Assembly (NCBI GenBank): GCA_036867785.1 | Contig: CP145421.1 | Coordinates: 744,001 to 808,000 of the forward strand | DNA length: 64,000 nucleotides | Source of the DNA: Plasmodiophora brassicae | Lineage: Eukaryota | Reading direction: 5' to 3' | In this document: positions 1,684 through 63,418 of the stretch, one piece after another | Numbering within the stretch: the stretch's first letter is position 1 | How the letters are laid out: every line of letters starts with the position of its first letter | Notes under the pieces: generated by a model | What the model saw: the letters and a program-made list of their open reading frames with translations, nothing else | Databases searched by the model: none | Told to the model about the DNA's origin: nothing | Made by a program: the position numbers and the translations under genes

Positions 1684-2553
1684 TCAGACGACGATGGAGC
1701 GCAGGACCGACTGACGTGATCGGACAACGCCGTTACGATCGACAGCGACACGGACGTCGATGCGCGCCAAAGTGAACGGCGAGTTGCCGTTGGCGTTCAG
1801 GCAGGCGAACAGCTCGGTGACGACGTGCCTGTGCGTTGTGACGGCCAGTTTGGGGCACAGGCCCCCACAGAGACTGCGGACGACATCGGGGCACGCCATG
1901 CAATCCAGAACGCCGTTCACGCGAACGGGCAGGCCGCGATAGGCGAACGATGATGCGTCCACGACAGACGACGGGTCAGGCACCTGGCGCCCGATGGTGT
2001 GGATGACTGCCGGGCCTATGAATGTCCCGTCACAAGTTGCCATGACGATCTCGCCAACGGCTACGTATGTCCTCGAGGACAGGGACGATGTTGGACGGTC
2101 CCGTGGAGGTGACAAAGACAGGCGCGGGAGACGCTCGGAAGACAGATGAGCAAGGTCGAGGCAGACCTGTCGAAGATGCGATGAGGGCGGCGCCTCGGCA
2201 GGGTTCAGGTTGAACAGGCGCGAGGCGGATGTCGTGCTGCCATGTGGGCGACCGCGCCACATCCGGACCCGGATGTCGGTCATCAGGATCACGTCGCCGA
2301 CCCGGAACCGTTCGACCCACCGCGACCGGTCCCGCCACATGGTGACCCGGAAGAACGGCGTGCCGCACTGCCCGACGAGGACGCTGCTGAACGCCACGCG
2401 CCCCGCCGACGTGATCGCCACCGGGTCGACCTGGAACGCCACGGCGCACAGGCTGACGACCGTGTCGACCTGGAGCCCGCCGATGCTGCTGGTCACGACT
2501 GGCGCATGCAGCCACGAGGCCTCGTAGTTCTGCAGCCGGGCCCAGTCGGACAT
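1684..2553 (-). CDS. OB-fold ssDNA-binding protein, SHLD2/FAM35A-like
   Basis: Intronless ORF; FFRVTMWRDRSRWVERFRVGDVILMTDIRVRMWRG...STTSASRLFNL fits the OB-fold pattern I recall for SHLD2; C-terminal VVTELFACL...VDRNG also resembles it. Confidence 0.6.
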   Translation of the reverse strand: MSDWARLQNYEASWLHAPVVTSSIGGLQVDTVVSLCAVAFQVDPVAITSAGRVAFSSVLVGQCGTPFFRVTMWRDRSRWVERFRVGDVILMTDIRVRMWRGRPHGSTTSASRLFNLNPAEAPPSSHLRQVCLDLAHLSSERLPRLSLSPPRDRPTSSLSSRTYVAVGEIVMATCDGTFIGPAVIHTIGRQVPDPSSVVDASSFAYRGLPVRVNGVLDCMACPDVVRSLCGGLCPKLAVTTHRHVVTELFACLNANGNSPFTLARIDVRVAVDRNGVVRSRQSVLRSIVV

Positions 2554-2703
2554 CGTCACGGGGATCCGCAGCTGCAGCGGACCGCGCGTTTTACCGCGTC
2601 GGTTCGCTCACCCGCCACATGACATGGGCCAACTGCACCGCGGGCTGTATTGGGGAATATGCGCGTTCAGGGGCCGGTGCACGACCACAAGCATGTTTCG
2701 CAT

Positions 2704-35011: not shown

Positions 35012-35818
35012 ATGCCCGGAGGTCAGGACTGGGTCCCCGCGTATAATTTTACCGATGACAAGGTGCCGTACGAAGGCAGGTGTCTGCCTGTCATCAGTCC
35101 TAGCCAAACGCTGACTATTCAACCATAGTGGACTCCTGGACGGTGACAGGCTCAGGCCAGCTCGAAAGAACGCAGGCGATGTACGACAAACGCCCATGTA
35201 CCGACACGCCCCCGTTCGTCGATAAGAATCTGGCTGTTGCCGAGTCCAGGTCGCCACTTGACTTGCTTGTCGCCATGGTCGTACCTACAAACACCTGCTG
35301 TACAGGGTCAGTTTTCCTCGGAAAGGCGATCGCCATCTCAGCCGCTCACGGTCAAAGACTAGGCGTGAACCCGGCCATCGAAGACCGTCATGGAGCCCGC
35401 ATGATACAATGAGTCTGCAGAAGGTGCAGCTGAGCGTTGCACTGGTGAATCGTCTCTGACAGTGGAGACCTACGTAGGTCTTGAGGCGCGGCTTTCGACA
35501 TAGTAAGCACGATATCATCCCGCAGACCTCCTCGTCGAAAACGGAACTTGGTATGGTGACTGACTTGGCACCGAGTCACTGACATGCAAGCTAATTGCAA
35601 ACGTAGACATTCGAGAAGCCGTGATTGTGCCAACAGTCGGCCACGTACTTAGCATCATCGAGCGTCAGGAGCTGGGACGCTTCCAGTTGCAATGGCTCGA
35701 ATCCGAGCGTCGAAAGCGATGGAAGTGCCCCGGTGCAGAGCAGTCGCTACTGTATCCGCTGAACATCTATGGCCAGACAGATGTTGACAAGTACTCGTCG
35801 CCGTACCCGAACGAATAG
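35012..35818 (+). CDS. Possible small multi-exon hypothetical gene
   Basis: ATG divergent from RPS25, several plausible donors and acceptors, and a last exon IIERQELGRFQLQWLESERRKRW...; I could not resolve a single consistent splice path. Confidence 0.3.
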
Positions 35819-35856
35819 CGCAAACACGACCGCGGTTTCTCTTAATCGAGGATGTA

Positions 35857-37626
35857 TTATCTGTTAACATGATGGGGAGATCTTGCGGGACGATGGTGTT
35901 CACGATGATGGTAGTGGTGATGCCTGGGAGGCGGTGCATTGTGTGAATGGGAAGGGCCGTGCGAATGGCCAGGCGGTCGGTATCCTTGCTGAGGCCTCGG
36001 ACGATGATGCCCTCCCATATCGAGGCGTTGTCGTTTGGACGCATGCGCTTGGGCCGCTGCCTCTGCACGTTGCTGCTTCCGCATTCGTGCCATGTACTCA
36101 TGCGATTGCTGATACACCGGGAGGCTGGCCGCACGTGTAAGCGACCAATCCACACACGTAACGGTACGGACGAGGAGTACTCTTTCGGATCCATTGGCAG
36201 CGGCTCTGTCCAGAAGAAATCATGCTGCAGAGCTTCGCGTGCGCTGATACGCTTCGCAGGGTCGAGCTCCAGCAGTTTTGACAACAGGTCCAGGACCAGA
36301 GACCCGTACCTGGAAGTCCCACCGTTAGACACGAGAGCAAATCACAGGGGGCCACCAAACATTACTTCGCAAACCGCGCCTCAAACGTCCTCGGATAGAC
36401 GTTCTTCATACGAAGCTTTTGATATCCGGGAAGTTTCGTGAAGCCGGGCCACGATTCAGGCGTCGGTGTCCCACACAACCGAAAGATCCGGTCGATCTGA
36501 TCGAGTTCCGTGGCACCGGGGAACGCCGGTGCCGCTGTCAGCATCTCCGCAAACACGCATCTGCACGGGAGCAACATCAGCGACGGGCGACAACATTATC
36601 GTGCCGCATGCGGCGATGCACTCCGTACCCGATGGACCACATATCAACAGCAGGGCCGTACTTTCGTGCACCATAGAGAAGTTCCGGAGGGCGGTACCTA
36701 GGCGAAATCCGTCTTCGAATGTTCATCGCAGAGCACGCGCACACAGGGGCCATACCACAGCGTGACGACATTCGACGTGTACTCCTCGTCAGTGTTGACA
36801 AATCGCGCCAGGCCGAAATCGGCGAGCTTGACCTCGCCGGTGTTGGATATAAGGACGTTGGGTCCCTGTCAAGGCCTGAGCGTTTGACAGAAAAGCCAGT
36901 AACCACAGATAGGCAACCTTGACGTCGCGGTGTAGAATCTTCTTGTTATGGCAGTGGTTGAGGCCTTGCAGGATACACCTGAGGTAGTACTTGATCTGCG
37001 GCATCGACAGCTTGACGTTCGGGTTCTCGAGTAGCCCGGTCAGGTCGTGGTCCATGAACGGAAACACCATCACGACCGACGAATTCTCCCGGTCCAAAGC
37101 CGAGTCTGCCATCGGGCCACGTCCGGTCAATGAGCGCAGTCGTGCAGGACGACGACGCCCACTGAATACAGACCAGTGGATGCAACGACGTCATTGAGCT
37201 GAATAATATTCTCATGCTCCAGCGCCTGCAGAATCTTGATCTCTCGGATAGCAGTGATCGGGAACTGGACACGGGCAACGTCAATTGATTCATGGAGACT
37301 TCACCGGCGCGCGGCGCGATCCAACAAACGCACCCCTTGGTTCTCGAACGCCATGCGAACCTTTTTCAGCGCGACAAGGCGCCCGCCCGGCGCTCTCGCC
37401 TTATACACAGACCTGCGTCGTGGCGGCGTTAGAGCTCGCTGACGCACAGCCGTCTAAAACCTGTCCAAATGGGACGATACGGGTACCCATAGGTGCCCTT
37501 GCCAATCATTTCGATCCGCTGATACACCTCGTCCGACCGGAACTGTGGATGCCGCTTGGGGTCGCATGCCCTGGCGCCGGACGCGTCATGTGCTGGCGGT
37601 GCGGACGGCGTCGCAGCACCCGACAT
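35857..37626 (-). CDS. CDK9/CDKC-type (PITAIRE) cyclin-dependent kinase, multi-exon
   Basis: [75 protein letters not shown]. Confidence 0.92.
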
Positions 37627-37982
37627 GCCACGACACGACAGCCAGGACAGCGACTGCGCCGCGCTGTTCGCGCCGGCCGCCCGATCGCGTCACTGCCCAC
37701 TCGACCCGGGACGGACGGACTCCGCCGACCAATGCCCAACCCAACCGCGCACTCGCAGGGCCACCCCGGAAAATCCGCAAGAACCATCGGGACCGCGTAC
37801 GTTCCAGGACACGGGCCGACCGACCCGCCATGATGATCGACTGGTCCGGTGGCGGCACGACCGCTATACAGTGCCGCGGCTCTACGGAGCAGAGACAGCA
37901 GATATCGAAACGGACGAGGGGAGAACGAGAACGGCTGTATCGCCAGCACAAAGGGCACGGTTCAAAACAACGCTGCACGTGT

Positions 37983-40060
37983 TCACGCGGCAAACGGGCA
38001 CTTTCCGAGGGAAAACCTGGGCGCCCACATGGTGAGTGACAATTCGCGAATACCTCGAGATGACTGAAACATACGCAGGGCACTGCTGGAGCATTTCCTT
38101 GATAGGCGTCGTGTCTTTAAGCAATGGCGACGCGTCCGAATCCTATGAGGCCACGCGATCAAACGGACAGCAATCTTCATTGCGCAGGCAGTGCGAACCT
38201 TATGGTGGAAATGCGCAAACAGTTTGGCGAAGTCGTCGTGCGAATATTTGGGAGTGCTGGGCTCTTTGCGCTTCTTACCCGACATGGGGCATCGGAACGA
38301 CGACGAAGACGCAGTTGATGAACACTGCAGAAGACGCCTGTAAATGGGAATTTGACAAAACGCGGCACGATAAACTCTTACACGCGACAAAATTGAGGCA
38401 GGGTCGGCTGCTGGGACGCGTGACGTAAGACGCGTCGCCTTGAGCATCTTGGACACGAAGTCATTGTCCCCTTGCAGCATCTCGTAATGCGTTGACGGAA
38501 TGGAAGCGAATTTCTCGAACAGCTGAGCTGACGTTTTGAGTTGCTACATCCACAGCAATTAGCAGACATCTTGAAGCAACGTGGTAGCAGAGCAACCTTA
38601 AACGGACACCCGTGGGCTTCAACGAAGGCCGGACACGATTTCAGAGCACGACCCATTGCCTCCTGCGGTGCCTGGAACGGGCGACCAAGTGCAGCGAACG
38701 GGCAGCCACTAAACATGTAGGAGAACATGACCAACACGTTGAAACGTGGAGACCACAGGCACAATACCCGGTAAAGGCAGAGCAGTCTTTGACGCTTTTC
38801 GTGAACAGGTACGCGATGTTGGGATGAGCGTCTGTTGGAGGTGACGCTGCGTTGAAAACGCATGACTTTCCTTTGAACGCTGGGCAATCTGCAACCTGGG
38901 CGGCGCTAGTGATTTCAGGATGGGCATTACTGTCTTTGGAAAATGGGCACGTTCCCGCCGACCACGCAGGGCACTTCTCCTTGATCACGTCCAACGCGCC
39001 ATCAATCATCCCCATCATGCGATGGTCCTTATCAGAACTGGCCTCACGGAATGGGCAGCCGGCCTGTTGCTTGAAGGCAATGCAGTCATGGGCGACATTG
39101 TCCAGCGCGTGAACTGGCGGGTGCAGTGCCTCATGCCAGCCAGCCAGGACGGGGCAGGACTCATGCTCTTGACGCTCAGGTTTGAAAGGACACCCAGCAG
39201 CGAACGCCTTGCAGTTGCCAACGTTTGCCAGTTGCGCCAGCTTTGGATATTTCGATTTCTTCGCATCGAAAGGGCAAGACTCAGAAAACCTGTACGGTAC
39301 GATAAATCGTTGGATCACAAACAGATGGGAGTCGTGCTTACGCTGGACATTTCCTCAAGTCCATCTCAGAGAAAGACTTGTACTTGTCCAGAGGACAGCG
39401 CTCATCCTTAAAAGCCGGGCAGACTTCGCGAAGATAAGCGATAAGGGCTTCAGAGAACTTGATGCCCTTATGAATTGTCTGCTGCGAATTGGGCTTGAAC
39501 GGACAGTCCGCAGCAAACGCTGGGCACTTCTTGATCTGAGCTGCAAATTCATCTACCGAGGGATGGACGGCAGACTTCTTGAACGGGCACGAATCATGTC
39601 CGCTGAAGACGGGGCACGTTTTGATATCGCCGACGAACCTGGTTCGAATCGAAGTCAAAGAGCTGGGATGACTGTGTAAACATTTGCCGTACTTAGATAT
39701 ATCCGGATGAGACGCTCCAGCGAACGGGCACGACTTGGTTTCTTTGAAGTTGGGGCAAAGATGCACCAGTGCCATTGACGTAATTTTCGGGTGCATGTCG
39801 TTGTTGTTCGAGAAGGGACAGCATCCTTGGTTCCAGGCTGGACACTTCTGACGAACGACTTCCAGATCCTCCTTGGAAAGAAGCGCTGCATGGCCGCCAT
39901 TTTCGCTCGAGAACGGGCATCCCTTGCCGTACGCCGGGCAACGCTGGACGCTCGGAACACCGTTCAAATTCGGGTGCCCCTTCGCTGGCGCGGCAGGCGC
40001 CGCGTCGGACGACTTGGCGCGCTTGTGTGCTGGGCTGGACGCATAAGGACACGTGGACAT
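37983..40060 (-). CDS. Orphan Cys-Pro repeat protein with 14 C-P-A-F-x(2-5)-C-P-F-type units, multi-exon
   Basis: Manual splicing across about 7 short GT-AG introns gives a continuous protein from MSTCPY to CPAFSLGKCPFAA*; repeats are restored across splice junctions. Confidence 0.85.
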
Positions 40061-40642
40061 ACCGGACGGTCTCTCCTCGACCGCCTTCCTCTGGAATTGG
40101 ACACAAAAATGTAGTGACTCGCCTCACGCTCGAGGGACGAGGCCGAGGGGACAAATTCAAGACCGCCACCAAAGGCTGCAGCAACGATTTTTTTGCCCGC
40201 AGTCCCATTCCGGCCATTCGTGTTGGCAGCAAGCAACCAGCACCAGCGGACATGGCATTTCGCCTATTCTGCCTATACCACATAAAAAGTATCTAAATAC
40301 GTACCATCACGTCACGAGAGCCGACGAATGACACTTAGAATCTTGCATCGAAGCGCTATGCGCAATCGGTGTGTGGCGACCTTTAGCCTGAACGTTCCCA
40401 GAATGTCTTCGACGTTCTCATGGACATACGCAATCAAACGACAACTGAACCATTATTGTGAGTGTCGTCTGAGAATGTTACGAAGCAGCGGGCCCGGTCC
40501 TGTTCTCCAAAACGATGTGTGATTGGACGGAACAGTTGCCACGGGGTCCCATCTCATTTTTGGGGTGTTGCCAGTTGACAAATATCGTTGAGCCTCGCGG
40601 GGATCAATCCACCTTGGGCATCGGGACGATCACGTGCGGAGG

Positions 40643-43600
40643 ATGGCGCTTGTATCGTCGACGGGCGTGCTCGCGCTCCTTGACGAGCCACAAACTGCGC
40701 TGCAGGTGCAGGCGCTGAGATCGCTGAACCAAATCGTCGATGTGTTCTGGGCCGAGATCGCATCATCGATCGCGAAATTGTGGGACGTGTATGCCATTCG
40801 TACGTGGAACTCGACTGACAACATCATACTACAGGGAATCGCTCTGCGAGAGTACTGTGTTCCCAGAAAAGGCGCTTGCAGCTGCTGTAATCTCGAAAGT
40901 GTTCTACCATCTCGAGGAATTAGATGACTCGCTGAAATATGCTCTTTCTGCTGGCGATCACTTCGACGTGCACTCTCATGCCGAGTACACAGAGACTCTT
41001 ATCGGTACGGACGGTACATGTAATCCTGCGACATGGTATTAACCCAAATGTTTGACAGCAAAGTGCATTGATGAGTACACCCGGCTTCGCTTGGTTGCCC
41101 TTGAAAGTGGGACCGAAGTGTGTCGTATTTGTATCCGTGTATTTGCACTACCTTATGTTTGTTCTTAGGCCAAAATCGACGCCCGCTTGGAAGCAATCAT
41201 CCAACGTGTGTTCCAACGCTGCTTTGAGGATTCTCAGTTGCATCAAGCTGTTGGTATCGCTCTGGAATGCCGTCGTCTTGACATGGTCGAGGCCGCTGTG
41301 GGACACGCGTCCGGCGACGCTGCCAAGTCTCGAATGATCAAGCACTGTCTCCACCTCGCGTTGACGGTTGTGAAATCCCGCCGTTTCCGGCAGGAAGTCC
41401 TGAGGCTCATCTGCGCTCTGTGCTCCAAACTCGAAACGCCCGATTCGTTGTCGCTTTGCCACTGCCTGATTTACCTCGACGATAGCAATGGGTTCGCGCA
41501 ACAACTTGGAGCACTTGCGAAGGCCGGTAATGTCCTGATGGCATACCAGATTGCATATGATCTTGCCGACTGTGACAATTATCCGTTCCAACTGCGCGTC
41601 ATTAACGCGCTACCCGACGCGGGCATTGACGAGCAAGTTCTCAAGAACCTCAAGTATATCTTGTCCGGCGAATCAGCGATCAAGCTGTACACACAATTCC
41701 TGCATTCGCAGGCGAAAACCGATCTCGGCATCATGTCCGCCATTAAGGAGCGCGTCGAGGGCCGCAACAGCGTAACGCACATGTCTGCCATCGTGTCCCA
41801 TGCTTTCATGCAATGCGGGACAACGCATGACCAGTTCATTCGGGACAATCTCGACTGGCTGACGCGAGCGAACAACTGGTCGAAGATGTCGGTGACTGCT
41901 GCTTTCGGCGTCATCCACAAGGGGTACCTGCAGAATTCCATGCGCATCCTTCGCCCGTACCTGCCAGGCGAGGGTTCTTCGAACTCTCCGTACCTTGTTT
42001 CTGGTGCATTGTACGGTCTCGGCCTGATTCATGCCAACCGCGGTGGCGATCAGTTGGCCTATCTCGAAGAATCCCTCCGGAATGCTGGTGAAGATGAAGT
42101 TGTCCAGCACGGGGCCTGTCTGGCGATCGGCCTGAATGCGATGCAGACGAGTGACGACAATCTGTACGACACGTTGAAAGGTGTTCTATTCCACGACAAT
42201 GCTGTCGCAGGGGAGGCCGCCGGTCTTGCAATGGGCCTTGTTCAGCTCGGTGCCAACAAGGAGGTGCACATCCACGAAATGATGGCGTACGCCAACGACA
42301 CCCAGCATGAGAAGATTGTTCGCGGTCTTGGCATAGGATTGGCGCTGATGGTTGCCGGCCAAGAGGAACATGCAGATGGTCTGATCACACGAATGCTGGG
42401 CGACAAGGATCCGAACATCCGCTACGGCGGTTGCTTTGCCATTGCACTTGCGTTTGCGTGCACGGCCGCCAACTCTGCTATCAATCGGCTGTTGCACATC
42501 GCTGTTTCCGATGTCTCTACGGATGTTCGTCGTGCTGCTGTTATTGGTCTGGGTTTCGTTCTTGGCAACGTTCCCGAGCGCGTCCCGAAGATTGTCTCGC
42601 TTCTGTGCGAGTCGTACAATCCGCATGTTCGGTACGGCGCCGCCCTTGCAATTGGTATCGCCTGTGCGGCAACGGCGAATCGCCAGGCCATCGAGCTGCT
42701 TACTGTCCTGTCTAAGGATCGCGTCGACTTCGTCCGTCAGGGTGGCATGCTGGGCCTGTCAATGGTCCTCATCCAAGTGAACTCCGCGCAAGAAGCAGCC
42801 GTGGAACAGCACCGGACGACGTTGACGACTGCCATTGAGGGGAAGCACACCGACACGCAGACAAAGATGGGCGCCATCTTGGCCCAGGGCATTCTGGACG
42901 CTGGTGGGCGCAACATGACCATCGCGCTTCGATCCTCCAGTGGCCACAAACGTCTGTGCGCGTGTGCTGGGCTGGCCGTGTTCACCCAGTATTGGTATTG
43001 GTACCCTCTCGTGCATTTCCTGTCGCTGGCGCTTGCCCCGACGCCACTGATTGGCCTGAACCGGAACCTGGCCATCCCTAAAAACGCGTCGTTCGTCTGT
43101 AATGCGCGCGCGTCGCTCTTCGACTACCCGGCCGTTCAGCAGCCCAAGAAGGAAGAGGAGGTGAAGAAGGTTCCAACTGCTCAACTGTCGATCTCGGCCA
43201 AGGCGAAGCAGAAGGCGATGAAGAAGAAACGGGGGTCCGGCGACGCCGATGCCATGGCAGTGGAGCCTGCGGAATCGCCGTCCGACAAAGAGGCGGTGAA
43301 GGGAGAATCTGCTGATGCCGCTGGCGAATCGACGACACAGCCTCCTGCAGTTACTGCACCTGAGCCTGATCATTTCACGTGCCCGAATCAGTGTCGGGTG
43401 ACTCCATCGCAGCGCCACTTGATGTCGGTCGAGCCCGGATCTAGGTATGCCCCGGTCAAGAAGGACGTCTTCGGCATAATTGTCCTATCCGACACGCGGC
43501 CCGACGAGCCGGAAGAACTGTTCAACGAAGAGCAGCCACATGGTACGTATATTCAGTAATCGGGTCATGAAAGTTGCTGAGCGCTTCTGTGTCCCTTCAG

Positions 43601-48081: not shown

Positions 48082-49842
48082 CTACATGATTGTATTACGG
48101 GCCTCGCCTGGCTGCACGACGATCGGTTCTTCTTCGAGTATGGCGTCTATCGCGCCTGTTTCCGTCTCCTTCGGCAGGCTGGTCTCCGTGATGGCCGGCG
48201 CCGACCGGTACGCGCCCGCCTTGATCACCGCCCGCAGATCGTCGTAGGCCGGGCTCTTCAGGAACCTCGGGTACACGTCCGACTCGATCAGGCGGAACAC
48301 GTTGTTCTGCGCCTGAATGTACATGCGCTTGTCGGCGGGCGGCCGCGTCAGTCGCTCCTTGATCTGATCCAGGATGTACGCCGGCAGGTTGACCACCGAA
48401 TCCGCCAGGTACTGGCTGTATATCTTGTTCGCCATCGTCGCGCGCTCCTCGTCGGTGACGTTGGCGCGCGCGAACCGATCGCACATCATCCAGAATTCGA
48501 CGTTCTCCTGCGACATCTCGCTCTTGCAGTAATTGATGAGGTATTCGACGCCGATCGGGTGATGCAGGATATCGACCAGCAGCATGGCGTCAGGGCTGAT
48601 CTCGTCGTCACCGCCCACCTGCGACAGCTTGAACACGGCCGCCGCCGAACGCGCCCTGCAATCATCGCCCTTGAAGTAGGCCTGGAAGTCGGCCCGATCC
48701 AGCGTCAGGAACAGGCAGTCGGTGACCGTCTTGGCCGTGCGTTTCCTCGGGCGGTCGTGCAGCAGCGCCAGTTCGCCAAAGTACGACCCGGCCGCTAGGC
48801 TCGTGCACTGGGCCGCCTGCGTTTCCGACGCCTGGCAGTACACGTCGACGGTGCCGTACGCGATCATGTAGAACAGGGCGCCCTTGTCGCCTTCGTTGAA
48901 CACGATCGTGTTCGCTGGGACGAACATGAGCTTCGTCTTCGGGCCCATCTCCATCAGCTGCTCGTCGGACAGCGACGCGAAGAACGGCCCCTTGTACCGT
49001 CGGAACTGTTTCGCGATCCGGATCTGGATCTGGGTCCGGATCGGGGCCTCGATCGACGGCGCCAGGTCGACGATCGTCTTGAACTCGGTGCTGCGAAGCT
49101 CGAACAGGAGGCAGTTGGTGTCGCAGGTGACGGTCGCCGTCCGCGGGATGCCCATCAGCAAGGCGATCTCGCCGAAGTAGTCGCCGTCGGCAACGCTGTC
49201 CAACGGGATGGCGAACTCGCCGGTCCCCGCCGTGCACTGCGCCCGCCCCGAATACATGATGAACATGGCCGCGCCCTGATCCGCCTCCCGGATCAGCACC
49301 TGGCCGGGGTCGGCCGCCCGGAAGTGCACCAGGTGGGCAATCATGTGCAGGTTGTCGTCCGACACGCCCGAGAACAGCGACAGGCGACGGAGGCAGGCGC
49401 GGATCAGTCGGGACCCGGCCAGGTCCTGCAACAGCTTGCGGACGTCATCAGACACGGACGCCAGCGCGTTCGCCTCCAGCACGAACAGCCGCACCACGGT
49501 CTTGGCTTCGACGGTGACCTCGTGCCCAGCACGAACGTCGTGCTCGTCGACGTACCCGAGGAACTCGCCCGACGTCCGCTGCGCGACCGCGTTCGTCAGC
49601 GGCGCAACGCGCACGTTGATGATGCCTTTGGAGATCAGGGCGATGTACGCGGGTGCGTCGCCGGGTTTATACAGGAACTCGTTGGGTTGCAGGTACCGGA
49701 GCGTCATGAGAGACGCCAGGTCGCTGAGCTCGTCGGCCGACATGTTGAAGCGTAACGCGGTCAGGCGCAGGGCCGCCAGCGCCTTCTGCTGCGCCGTCAG
49801 GGTCTGATGCAATTTCTTCCAACGGGCCGCCAACCCCGCCAT
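48082..49842 (-). CDS. Three cyclic-nucleotide-binding domains + C-terminal RGS domain, intronless
   Basis: Phosphate-binding cassettes YFGEIALLMGIPRTATV and YFGELALLHDRPRKRTA; RGS motifs YCKSEMSQENVEFW, KIYSQYL, VNL, AQNNVFRLIESDVYPRFLKS. Confidence 0.92.
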   Translation of the reverse strand: MAGLAARWKKLHQTLTAQQKALAALRLTALRFNMSADELSDLASLMTLRYLQPNEFLYKPGDAPAYIALISKGIINVRVAPLTNAVAQRTSGEFLGYVDEHDVRAGHEVTVEAKTVVRLFVLEANALASVSDDVRKLLQDLAGSRLIRACLRRLSLFSGVSDDNLHMIAHLVHFRAADPGQVLIREADQGAAMFIMYSGRAQCTAGTGEFAIPLDSVADGDYFGEIALLMGIPRTATVTCDTNCLLFELRSTEFKTIVDLAPSIEAPIRTQIQIRIAKQFRRYKGPFFASLSDEQLMEMGPKTKLMFVPANTIVFNEGDKGALFYMIAYGTVDVYCQASETQAAQCTSLAAGSYFGELALLHDRPRKRTAKTVTDCLFLTLDRADFQAYFKGDDCRARSAAAVFKLSQVGGDDEISPDAMLLVDILHHPIGVEYLINYCKSEMSQENVEFWMMCDRFARANVTDEERATMANKIYSQYLADSVVNLPAYILDQIKERLTRPPADKRMYIQAQNNVFRLIESDVYPRFLKSPAYDDLRAVIKAGAYRSAPAITETSLPKETETGAIDAILEEEPIVVQPGEARNTIM

Positions 49843-49957
49843 CGGAGCCCGACCGCGACGAGGAACAACGAGAGATACCTATGTCGCCCGTTCTCCGTTC
49901 CAGATATCTCGTATGTATTGAGCGGCAATCGCGTGGATACCCAACGGATCACAAGAT

Positions 49958-59749: not shown

Positions 59750-62133
59750 ATGTCGTGCCGCGAGATCAACTGCTGTACGTGTGCCGCCGGCCCGTTGCTC
59801 GGCGCCCGCCGCCCACTGACCGTCGTCTCAGCTTGCGACCGGTTCGTCGGGTCGGCCGTCAACCCGACCGAATGCATCTGCCAGCATTCCTGCGTTCGAC
59901 ATCGGGTCGCGCGCGCATCCTGTCCACGACCCCACCTGGCACAGCGCCAGACCGGTTCGTCGCCGCCGCCCAACGCCGTCCCCCAGCGCATCGGCCGCAG
60001 TCATTCGCATTCAGAATCCTCCAAGACTGCTCGACCGCTTCCCTCGTACCATGATCCGTCCTGTAGCGGCCCGCCATCTGTCTGACGCGTTCCCATCCGT
60101 AGGTTGTCGTCGTTGAAGAATCAGCCGACATCGAAAAGCCTGGAGGATGTCAGCACACGACCAGCGTCGTCAGCAGCAGCGCCTGTTGTGCCGGCGACGA
60201 ACAATGTGCTCAGTGACGGCTCTGTACAACAACGGGTGCCCGTTTGTCGTCCCGCCTGGTGCTGATTTGTCGACAGGGGAAGGCGACGTTCGCGTCGTAC
60301 CTGCCGCACGCGTTCGACAAGGTGAAGGATCAGCTGGAGACGGGCATGGCCGAGGTGTACCGCCTGAAACAGTTCGTCATGAAGCTGTGCCAGATGCAGC
60401 AGGACTTCAGCAACGAGCTGGCGACGCTCGTCAAGCGCGAGAAGGACAAGATCGCCATGTGGCGCAAACCCGACTTCATGGTGTCGTGCGGGGGCGCCGT
60501 CCTCGACGTCTTCGAGAAGGCGGAGGAAATGGCGCGCATCCACAGCTGTTTCGCCACCGAGGCGCGCCTGTCCGTCGTCGAACCTCTGCAAACGTTCGAG
60601 GAGATCGGCAAGCCGATCCTGAACCGGATCATCGACAAGGAGCGCTCGATCACGTCCGGGATGGATGCCCGACGCTCCCTGATGGAGAAACGCAAGGCGG
60701 AATGCTTGCGCCTGCTGTCAGTTCATGCTGGCGACCTGGGCATCGACGCATCGTCGCTGGACCTGAACGCGCAGCGCCCTGCACGAAGCAACCGCGGCGG
60801 GATGCTGCTGCACAAGATCGGGACGCGCGCGGCTGAGGTCCTCGGCAAGGCCGACGAGGCGCGCGTTCGCAACGCCCAGGTGGTCGAGAAGGCGTGCGCG
60901 TCGTACTCGGACGAGATCGCCATTTCCAACCACATGCTGCACTCGTACACGTCGCGCGAGGTACCCGAGCTGCTGTTCGAGATGCAGAGCCTGGAGGAGA
61001 TGCGCATCAATTCGGTTCGCGGGCACCTGGAGGCGTTCGGCGCCCTGTTCTCGCCAATGGCAACCAGGTACCAGGCGCTGTCGGACGGCCTACGCCGGTC
61101 CTGTGCCGCGATCGACCTCGACGGCGACATTGTCGGGTTCTGCACGAACGCCGCGTCGCAGTACGCTGATGGGTCCAGGCGCCTGGACCCGTTCCAGTAC
61201 GAGCTGGCGATCCCGTTGGACGAGATCCTGCGCCTGACGTCGTCGGTCGTGAACGCGTCGCCGCCGCCGTGCCCCGTGTACTTCAAGACGACGCTGGACG
61301 GCATCATGGAGCGTCAGCGGGAGTCGTCCGTCTACCCGGAGCACACGTTACCGAATGTGTTCACGGTTCTGAAGGCGGCGGTTGTTCGTGCCGGTGGTCT
61401 GACGACCGAAGGCATCTTCCGCGTGTCGCCGGAAGCGTCCGCCGTTGTCGATCTCGCGCGTCAGTTCGAGTCCGGTGATCTCAGGGTACCTGCGGATACG
61501 TCGCCGCACGTGCCGGCCGCGTTGCTGAAGAAGTGGATGCGTGAGCTGACGTCCCCGATCATGCCGGATCAGTTGTACGAGGCGTGCGTCGACCTGGGGC
61601 GACAGACGGCGTGCCCTGGGCGGGAGCGATTGCAGAGCGTGATCGGACAGATGCCGGTGCATCACGCCAGGCTGATGACCGCGGTCCTGCACCTGGTGCA
61701 ACAGTTCGCCGCGCACGAGGCGGAGAACAGGATGTCGGTCAAGAACCTGTGCATCGTCCTGGTACCGTCCGTGTTACGGTGCCCGGAGAACGCCGACCCG
61801 ATCCAGGTGATGAAGAACGCCCAGTTCGAGTGCCGGTTCCTGGAGTACTGCGTCGAGGCCGTCGACACGTCGTCGTACCCGGTCGGCGAAGAGGACGACG
61901 CCGTCCGGTTCCTGAACAGCGCGGCGGTAGACGCCGTGCAACCGTCGCCCAGAGCATCGGTCTCATCAGACAGCCCAACGCGAAAGGAGGCGGTTGCCGA
62001 CGCCAAGAACGGGCCGGAAACGCCGGCCGTGCCGCCGTTGCTGCCCATGTGGAGATCGGCGTTCGACGCCGACGGCAAGCAATACTATTTCCATATCGAG
62101 ACCAGGGAAACCACCTGGACGCGACCGTGCTGA
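59750..62133 (+). CDS. F-BAR + RhoGAP + WW protein with an N-terminal Cys/His motif
   Basis: F-BAR-like helical region (MQSLEEMRINSVR); RhoGAP GLTTEGIFRV, PAALLKKWMREL, NRMSVKNLCIV; WW LPMWRSAFDADGKQYYFHIETRETTWTRP. The 5' exons are inferred. Confidence 0.88.
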
Positions 62134-62296
62134 AATACATCAACACGACCCGCGGTGCGACAATGTAGCTTCGGAGTTCTGTCTCCACTGCCTCTGCTGT
62201 ACCTACAGTAGTATTGCATATTCTGCATCCCCACCTGCTTGCGCAATACGTGTCGTGCTTCGCTATTCTGGGCGCGGCGCGTGTGAGACCAGTCGG

Positions 62297-63418
62297 ATGT
62301 CGGATGTGGATGACGGCAACGGGCGGAAGCGGTGTCGCGGCGCGGCGGCGTCCTCGTTGGCCAAGCGACGATCGCTGCTGCGGATCAGCGTGCCGTCGTT
62401 CAGTGCCGTAGACAACGACGATGGGGACGGGACGGGCGCTGCTGCCGTCAGCGCGGTGCACCCGACTGCGCTGTACGACATTGTTAGGGAGCTCTGCAAC
62501 ACAGAGCAAGGCAAGATCCTGTTGGCGAAACGGCGCTCGCTTGGGGACTTGCTCGTGCTCAAAGTTGTAAAATCGCATTTAGGTAGCGGCATCATGGCGG
62601 CACAACGGATTCTATCTGATCTTGTTGATGTAGCACGGAAACGACGATCGATTGCGGGGGATGAGCTTCCCGATGACGTTCTGAGTGAGATCGAGGTGAT
62701 GCAGATGTTGCATCCGCCGGGCCATGAATCTGTGATCAAGTTCGTCGAGGTCCTGCATTCGGCGAATCACATTTGGATCGTGATGGAGTATGCACCTGGT
62801 GGCGATCTCGTCGGTCTCATGGGTGCCCCGCTGTGCCGACAGCGTTTGAGACGGTACGCCCGACAATTGCTCGACGCCGTTATGTTCGTCCATTCGCGAG
62901 GGGTCGCGCATTTAGACATCAGCCTCGAGAATGTCTTCATCGGTGCGGACGACGTGATCAAACTGGGTGACTTCGGGGTGGCGCGACGAGTGCGTCAGCA
63001 TTGTGGACGCGTGGGGAAACTGGCGACGATGGCGCCGGAAGCGTTTGCGGGTGACGAGACGTTCGACACTTTCCAGGCCGATATGTGGTCCGTTGGCGTC
63101 CTGCTATTTTCTTTGGCCTTCGGCAGACCTCCGTTCTCCGAACCAAGCCAGGCGGATCGTGGATTTGCAGACGTTATTGAGAACGGATTCGAGGGCATCG
63201 CGCGGGTCGCTGGTGTCGAGTTGGACCAGGACAGGCCGCTACTCGAGTTTCTTGGCTCGCTGTTGACAAACGCCGGGTCGAGATTATCAGCTCAGTCTGC
63301 AAGGTCTCATTCCTGGTTCACTGTGCAAGATGGTGACGACAAGAAGGATGCTGATGACAGTATAGTTGGCAGCGACTCTCCCAATGGTGACGGTGGCGTC
63401 GAGCGAACCTCAGACTGA
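62297..63418 (+). CDS. CAMK-like Ser/Thr protein kinase (non-RD), intronless
   Basis: LVLK, EIEVM, IVMEYAPGGDL, AHLDISLEN, DFG, MAPE, ADMWSVG. Confidence 0.88.
   Translation: MSDVDDGNGRKRCRGAAASSLAKRRSLLRISVPSFSAVDNDDGDGTGAAAVSAVHPTALYDIVRELCNTEQGKILLAKRRSLGDLLVLKVVKSHLGSGIMAAQRILSDLVDVARKRRSIAGDELPDDVLSEIEVMQMLHPPGHESVIKFVEVLHSANHIWIVMEYAPGGDLVGLMGAPLCRQRLRRYARQLLDAVMFVHSRGVAHLDISLENVFIGADDVIKLGDFGVARRVRQHCGRVGKLATMAPEAFAGDETFDTFQADMWSVGVLLFSLAFGRPPFSEPSQADRGFADVIENGFEGIARVAGVELDQDRPLLEFLGSLLTNAGSRLSAQSARSHSWFTVQDGDDKKDADDSIVGSDSPNGDGGVERTSD

Follow-up and report, generated by a model that had tools for sequence, protein, structure and literature searches.

A paired Cys-Pro loop protein of Plasmodiophora brassicae and its probable kinship with a cysteine-rich domain ahead of heme oxygenases

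The 64,000-nucleotide stretch of Plasmodiophora brassicae DNA analyzed here (the window) encodes a 562-aa protein that is built from 11 tandem paired-cysteine loops and one degenerate copy of the domain that precedes heme oxygenase in other eukaryotes, without the enzyme part. Homology between this repeat protein and the heme oxygenase front-end domain is close to certain from the profile comparisons below, and the protein probably holds heme or iron, judging from its sequence and its relatives. In this obligate root parasite, it would hint at a way of handling heme or iron. The Cys-Pro signature and the heme oxygenase partner are known, whereas the domain and its enzyme-free arrays are apparently new: no published account of the domain or of PBRA_004469 was found in searches of the open full-text literature. 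Neither Pfam nor NCBIfam has a family covering the repeat or the domain.

The repeat gene is a real, spliced gene encoding a soluble protein. It extends on the minus strand from an ATG at 40060 to a TGA at 37985–37983 and has a compact eukaryotic structure of eight exons and seven introns, every intron being GT..AG (introns 1–4 at 39692–39639, 39341–39290, 38767–38709, and 38596–38544; introns 5–7 at 38381–38325, 38198–38143, and 38074–38017). Joints were read from the contigs of four of the 24 listed runs (X1, X5, X7, and X15). All seven introns are spliced out in the contigs of X1, X5, and X7, which come from three studies and are RNA-like by a program's guess, none being recorded as RNA; this bears out the spliced exons of the original prediction. 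In the unspliced run X15, none of the seven is removed. The RNA-like contigs over the gene begin at 40102–40180, and the spliced product is identical to the public P. brassicae protein P0001. NCBI names this protein "CDK2 like", a label probably inherited from a model merged with the neighboring kinase. The older public model CEO95756 (924 aa; PBRA_004469) keeps introns 5 and 7 and reads into the downstream kinase gene, and a kinase domain occurs only in the merged model (P0193, aa 635–911), where it belongs to the next gene. The joints of the three studies, which place the stop at the TGA given above, contradict that model.

Within 38143–38278 (minus strand), intron 6 translated in the exon 7 frame encodes a C-x6-CCPF motif that ends at the acceptor TAG, and the relative P0059 has a full extra motif at the matching place. 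An alternative intron from a strong donor at 38278 to the AG at 38199 would bring this motif in frame (520 aa, without KKRK); it is absent from the contigs of the four runs examined, and patterns of the C-x6-CCPF type arose in 24 of 5,000 shuffled introns in a post hoc count. The CDK gene lies directly downstream of the repeat gene (about 35650–37645, minus strand), with one RNA-like contig (X1) continuing beyond 37600, and the gene for the 26S proteasome subunit Rpn2 (40640–43559, plus strand) is divergent and ~0.6 kb from the repeat gene start. No heme or iron link was seen in CDK, Rpn2, or the 21 scanned of the window's 34 longest ORFs, and tblastn with the heme oxygenase domain gave no match within the 64-kb window. 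Farther away, an ORF at 1684–2607 (minus strand) matches the first OB-fold of Shieldin complex subunit 2 (PF21669, E 4e-12), here in a rhizarian; an ORF at 48085–49878 (minus strand) comprises two cNMP-binding domains and an RGS domain; and overlapping-frame ORFs at 60217–63415 (plus strand) carry RhoGAP, WW, and protein kinase domains and are possibly one spliced gene.

The spliced product contains 14 paired C-P-x-F-x(2-5)-C-P-F motifs, all those listed in the original prediction being present and in order. It has 33 Cys and 27 Cys-Pro motifs, where more than 20 had been claimed, together with all seven of the H-P-x-[ILV] linkers, and 10,000 shuffles of the protein never gave more than two paired motifs or more than 10 Cys-Pro. 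Motifs 1–11 form a tandem array (aa 41–367; 38854–39940, minus strand) with a period of 24–43 aa, whose linkers mostly carry H-P-x-[ILV] or another His, generally 7–12 residues past the second Cys. On the same strand, the coding part of exon 1 (39693–40060) holds the start codon, a lone CPY, a basic N-tail, and motifs 1–3; exon 2 (39342–39638) holds motifs 4–6 and the start of motif 7; exon 3 (38768–39289) holds the end of motif 7, motifs 8–11, a lone CPV, and the start of motif 12; and exon 4 (38597–38708) holds the end of motif 12 and motif 13. A Cys2-His unit had been proposed for the repeat. It stands within this subfamily, where a His lies no more than 25 residues after 10 of the 14 motifs, but not family-wide, since only 144 of 451 short linkers contain His and the relative P0168 has none.

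The claim that no catalytic domain, signal peptide, or transmembrane helix is visible agrees with our scans, in which the protein had no match to heme oxygenase in Pfam or with our own heme oxygenase profile, no signal peptide, and no hydrophobic segment (maximum KD19 0.78); its compartment is presumably reducing. Spongospora has an orthologue (50% identity), and across three full-length proteins Cys is retained at 29 of the 33 positions. Two basic motifs had been put forward as nuclear localization signals; KKRK is kept in 3/3 full-length relatives compared and stays a candidate, whereas PAHKRAK is not kept.

The original prediction regarded the protein as an orphan, which is refuted by the relatives retrieved. 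The first search returned three proteins: the repeat protein itself, its Spongospora orthologue, and a protein with motifs ahead of a heme oxygenase domain. The non-enzyme part of this fused relative gave 154 matches, the best 120 of which are listed, and profiles built from the repeat protein and the relatives nearest to it yielded 54 and 80 matches. Among the matches listed, 195 of the 196 retrieved proteins from outside the window carry the motif; seven window-derived proteins were excluded from these counts, and P0145, an F-box/LRR protein without the motif, was removed as a false match. Fusion to heme enzymes, which the original prediction had suggested looking for by profile, was found as a heme oxygenase domain in 100 of the 195 motif-bearing relatives listed, a set that contains redundancy (corals are numerous, and there are some cluster duplicates) and for which a fused protein was one of the seeds. 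The motifs are N-terminal to the enzyme in 100/100, and three motifs are the commonest number (52/100). Seeding only with non-fused proteins still gave heme oxygenase in 28 of 80 and 10 of 54 matches, and many of the matches lacking it are short gene fragments.

Among the matches listed, fused carriers include the cnidarians Actinia, Actinostola, Desmophyllum, and Xenia, six Mucorales, the oomycetes Saprolegnia, Aphanomyces, and Achlya, Perkinsus, the dinoflagellates Gymnodinium and Polykrikos, and the amoeba Balamuthia. Enzyme-free carriers listed are Spongospora, Planoprotostelium, Physarum, Clastostelium, Vermistella, the choanoflagellate Salpingoeca, Dendronephthya, Jimgerdemannia, and Chromosphaera; the arrays that stand alone come from amoebozoans, corals, Spongospora, and one choanoflagellate. 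Names of vertebrates or land plants are absent from the named matches listed. The domain is fused to heme oxygenase in no fewer than four major lineages (Opisthokonta, Amoebozoa, Stramenopiles, and Alveolata) and also stands alone. As other partners among the matches listed, a weak SnoaL-like domain accompanies the motifs in a few proteins that look secreted, and RhoGAP and MORN occur once each, possibly through merged models.

Several relatives depart from the common layout. P0138, P0141, P0136, and P0095 combine 4–8 motifs with a weak SnoaL/NTF2-like domain (Pfam E 8e-5 for P0138 and 0.019 for P0141; by eye for P0136 and P0095), and three of them have a signal-peptide-like start. P0044 of Salpingoeca urceolata has the layout of heme oxygenase without the catalytic domain: it contains three complete domains together with a lone CPV-H, and its C-terminus is a membrane anchor. 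In the array subfamily of P0053, P0054, P0057, P0060, P0167, and P0171, whose named members are cnidarian, Cys replaces the first conserved His and the second is often missing. In the Mucorales heme oxygenases P0175, P0179, P0181–P0183, and P0189, the domain is cut down to two motifs with P-x-x-H-P, and C-terminal Cys-Pro motifs are mostly absent. The amoebozoan-type arrays P0056, P0061–P0063, P0065, P0068, P0069, and P0165 are composed of four-motif units with His-rich spacers and terminate in a conserved CPF-x-x-x-H tail; the Planoprotostelium array is named "erythrocyte binding protein", probably wrongly.

The front-end domain, which lies on the N-terminal side of heme oxygenase, is ~110 aa long and contains six Cys and two His. 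In 41 of the 43 fused proteins examined, the order is motif, short helix, motif, helix with P-x-x-H after it, helix with His, motif, and G-x-P-L-x-x-E-L, and the seed of 41 domains was built without P0067 and P0109. The two His are retained in 39/41 and 40/41 of these fused domains; the His were outside the selection pattern and the Cys within it. Across 234 complete domains from 141 proteins, each of the six Cys is retained in 232–234, and 208 retain the second His. At the first His position, 64/234 have His and 32/234 have Cys, with variation in coral copies, and the second His is missing in 24 of the 32 domains with the Cys substitution. Cys spacing is exactly 6 in 658 of 950 motifs, Pro follows the first Cys in 917/950, and Phe stands at +3 in 939/950, the motif pattern having demanded an aromatic at +3 and not Pro after the first Cys; the consensus loop is C-P-x-F-x-x-G-C-P-F/Y. 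An AlphaFold model of a relative's domain, of moderate confidence (pLDDT 71; helices 78–90), is all-helical with the motifs between the helices.

Three comparisons point to a copy of this domain in the repeat protein. The fused-domain profile matches best at aa 387–476 (iE 1e-12), hhalign gives a probability of 99.6 over 40 columns, and a Cys-free helical sub-profile of the 41 fused domains matches aa 433–467, just past motif 13, at 6.4 bits, a narrow margin over the best of 1,000 shuffles (5.5 bits). With the same sub-profile, Spongospora reaches 7.5 bits against 5.8 shuffled, P0059 stays below 5 bits, and the domain's C-terminal tail, searched as a profile, yielded no match. By these alignments, the C-terminal third is a degenerate domain copy (aa 391–560; 37992–38784, minus strand), following the 11 tandem motifs and carrying a KKRK-bearing insert of ~45 aa. 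Exon 5 (38382–38543) encodes the first helix and P-x-x-H (His452, 38489–38487) of the heme-oxygenase-type module; exon 6 (38199–38324) encodes the insert, with a lone CPM and KKRK (38276–38265), and then a helix with His527, probably the module's second helix, as judged by eye in alignment A2; exon 7 (38075–38142) encodes a linker and the start of motif 14; and the coding part of exon 8 (37983–38016) encodes the end of motif 14 and the stop codon, all on the minus strand. The His helix (aa 516–527) and the final motif are present after the insert, and the profile failed to align them in one piece.

Structure searches gave no clear match. The best PDB sequence hits had E 1.6 (whole protein) and 0.61 (one domain), and the ESM Atlas yielded no usable match to either the whole protein or a single domain. 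The AlphaFold model of the full repeat protein is unreliable (mean pLDDT 47) and was left out of the fold search. With the domain model, which is of moderate confidence and ligand-free, the best Foldseek E was 1.7 and the best VIA match had Z 4.3 and rmsd 3.2 over 86 aligned residues. The absence of a clear fold match does not amount to a new fold. A complex prediction, run without alignment, in which the Actinia domain was combined with heme and the catalytic core of the same protein gave no answer (score 0.00). In the metagenome search, the one locus returned, L001, was rejected as a chance match, its ORF having no Cys motifs.

The repeat protein may be a heme-holding or heme-relay module detached from its enzyme, a reading to which we give slightly less than an even chance. 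Recurrent fusion to heme oxygenase, its dominant partner, suggests by domain association that the module is tied to heme breakdown; the homology to the fused domain extends past the motif into the Cys-free helical part, and both Cys of the loop bear the Pro-aromatic signature of heme regulatory motifs (HRMs). The loops would present reduced, Phe-flanked Cys-Pro thiolates as axial ligands of ferric heme, and a His close by would be the second ligand or the one to which heme is handed over. In the fused proteins, the domain would gather labile heme and then pass it to or gate the catalytic pocket, as an enlarged, structured counterpart of the HO-2 HRMs. The stand-alone array would be a multivalent heme sink or relay, and the conserved KKRK might perhaps allow its nuclear entry. 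PMC10377097 describes heme-binding CP motifs as located in inter-helix loops, often near aromatics, and as able to hand heme to His. PMC11900463 reports that HO-2 HRMs take up a second heme and regulate activity and, together with PMC8808069, that they load the catalytic site with heme. However, PMC8808069 also reports that heme buffering in cells does not require these HRMs, and Cys-Pro alone therefore does not establish heme binding or buffering. The link to heme made in the original prediction is strengthened by fusion to heme oxygenase across several supergroups.

Other observations argue against heme. Since 53 of 61 complete fused enzymes have further Cys-Pro on the C-terminal side of the catalytic domain, a role like that in HO-2 may be taken already, and in the four relatives with signal-peptide-like N-termini the Cys would be oxidized. 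Known HRMs are mostly single, flexible motifs, and the strict Cys pairs and six near-invariant Cys per domain look like a metal site. The Zn/Cu-type metal alternative of the original prediction is nearly as likely because of the strict Cys pairing, the His-to-Cys swap, and the likeness to half a CCCH finger.

A metal-thiolate module is a close rival, only somewhat less likely than the heme reading. Each loop would be a bidentate "half finger", and loops would pair together or with His, binding Fe2+, Fe-S, or Zn. Six Cys and two His make eight ligands, as many as two tetrahedral sites require; the His are conserved without having been selected for; the His-to-Cys replacement is a swap typical of metal ligands; and 29 of the 33 Cys positions are kept in all three full-length proteins. 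The motif also matches the first half of CCCH models and that half only (PF25585 positions about 1–18 of 32), with E 0.0094 for the repeat protein, and the whole-protein E of relatives is as low as 4e-11. Heme oxygenase releases iron and requires electrons, so an iron or Fe-S site would fit the fusion equally well as heme capture: the fused domain would catch the released iron, relay electrons to the enzyme, or be a structural two-metal domain, and the stand-alone arrays would be iron or metal stores. However, CCCH, CDGSH, and ferredoxin patterns are absent from the motif region of every relative scanned, the three full-length proteins have no CxxC, and metal binding does not call for Pro-aromatic after both Cys. 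The ligand count is also not constant, as His is missing from some arrays and the second His is lost in most of the Cys-swap domains.

A redox switch or thiol buffer is unlikely. The C-x6-C loop would close as a disulfide, like the two HRM cysteines of HO-2, and would adjust heme oxygenase to the redox state; as thiol sinks, the arrays would counter the oxidative burst of the host. The strict intramotif pairing and the secreted-looking relatives fit such closure, PMC11900463 (see also PMC2742820) reports that the HO-2 HRM disulfide tracks the cellular redox state, and a disulfide would be consistent with redox-gated heme binding; yet the conserved His and the His-to-Cys swap are left unexplained, and the repeat protein presumably sits in a reducing compartment. 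A regulator that acts in the nucleus or binds RNA through degenerate CCCH-like fingers, or one linked to a kinase as "CDK2-like" implies, is very improbable: KKRK, the weak half-finger matches, and the adjacent CDK gene merged in one public model speak for it, but the repeat lacks the third Cys and the closing His of a CCCH finger, the merged model needs introns that the contigs of three studies splice out, and Spongospora P0002 and P0059 have no kinase domain.

Tentatively, and with rather less than an even chance of being right, the domain may be an ancient eukaryotic cofactor module, a folded Cys6-His2 unit made of paired Cys-Pro loops, that serves heme intake, iron exit, or electron relay of heme oxygenase in many non-vertebrate lineages and that was repeatedly split off and amplified into enzyme-free arrays. 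If so, the arrays would represent a novel class of proteins that store and chaperone labile heme or iron. The wider question is how labile heme is kept in cells and brought to heme oxygenase and how the released iron is taken away; the domain may bear on it and is small, conserved, and readily expressed. Its description would annotate more than 100 hypothetical proteins and correct a "CDK2-like" label.

The unannotated N-terminal extensions of PF01126 heme oxygenases (Saprolegnia SPRG_11703, Actinia tenebrosa HO-1-like, Perkinsus chesapeaki, and Mucorales) have the same motif and, past the second motif, a helix and P-x-x-H homologous to those of the repeat protein, which in contrast lacks the catalytic domain and membrane tail and adds 11 motifs with H-P-x-I linkers and the KKRK insert. 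CCCH fingers (PF00642 and PF25585) share the first half, C-x-x-F-x-x-G-x-C, whereas the repeat has no third Cys and no C-x3-H end, and its Cys spacing is shorter (mostly 6). The pattern C-x7/8-C-x5-C-x3-H occurs nowhere in the repeat protein and once among the relatives scanned (P0110), outside the family motif; half-CCCH Pfam matches fall below the cut-off for the repeat protein and above it in P0068 and P0168 by summing repeats. The repeat protein contains no CxxCH of c-type multiheme cytochromes. CDGSH/NEET [2Fe-2S] proteins share the 3:1 Cys:His ratio of the fused domain, but the repeat protein has no match to the CDGSH consensus and none to this family in Pfam. Metallothioneins are very high in Cys, with CxC/CxxC clusters and few aromatics; a stand-alone Cys-rich array as a possible store resembles them, whereas the repeat protein has only 5.9% Cys, is Phe-rich (6.6%), and has no CxxC. 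On these comparisons, it is outside the heme oxygenase, CCCH finger, CxxCH cytochrome, CDGSH, metallothionein, and CDK families. Heme regulatory (Cys-Pro) motifs are found in HO-2, ALAS, Bach1, Hap1, and HCCS, and the repeat family shares their Cys-Pro-hydrophobic signature, an association with heme oxygenase, and a nearby His, the second half of the repeat, G-C-P-F-K, resembling the HO-2 motifs. Unlike them, its Cys are strictly paired at fixed spacing, lie N-terminal rather than C-terminal as in HO-2, and form a conserved ~110-aa helical domain and also arrays of 8–20 or more without the enzyme. If the module does hold heme, the repeat protein would work like an HRM protein.
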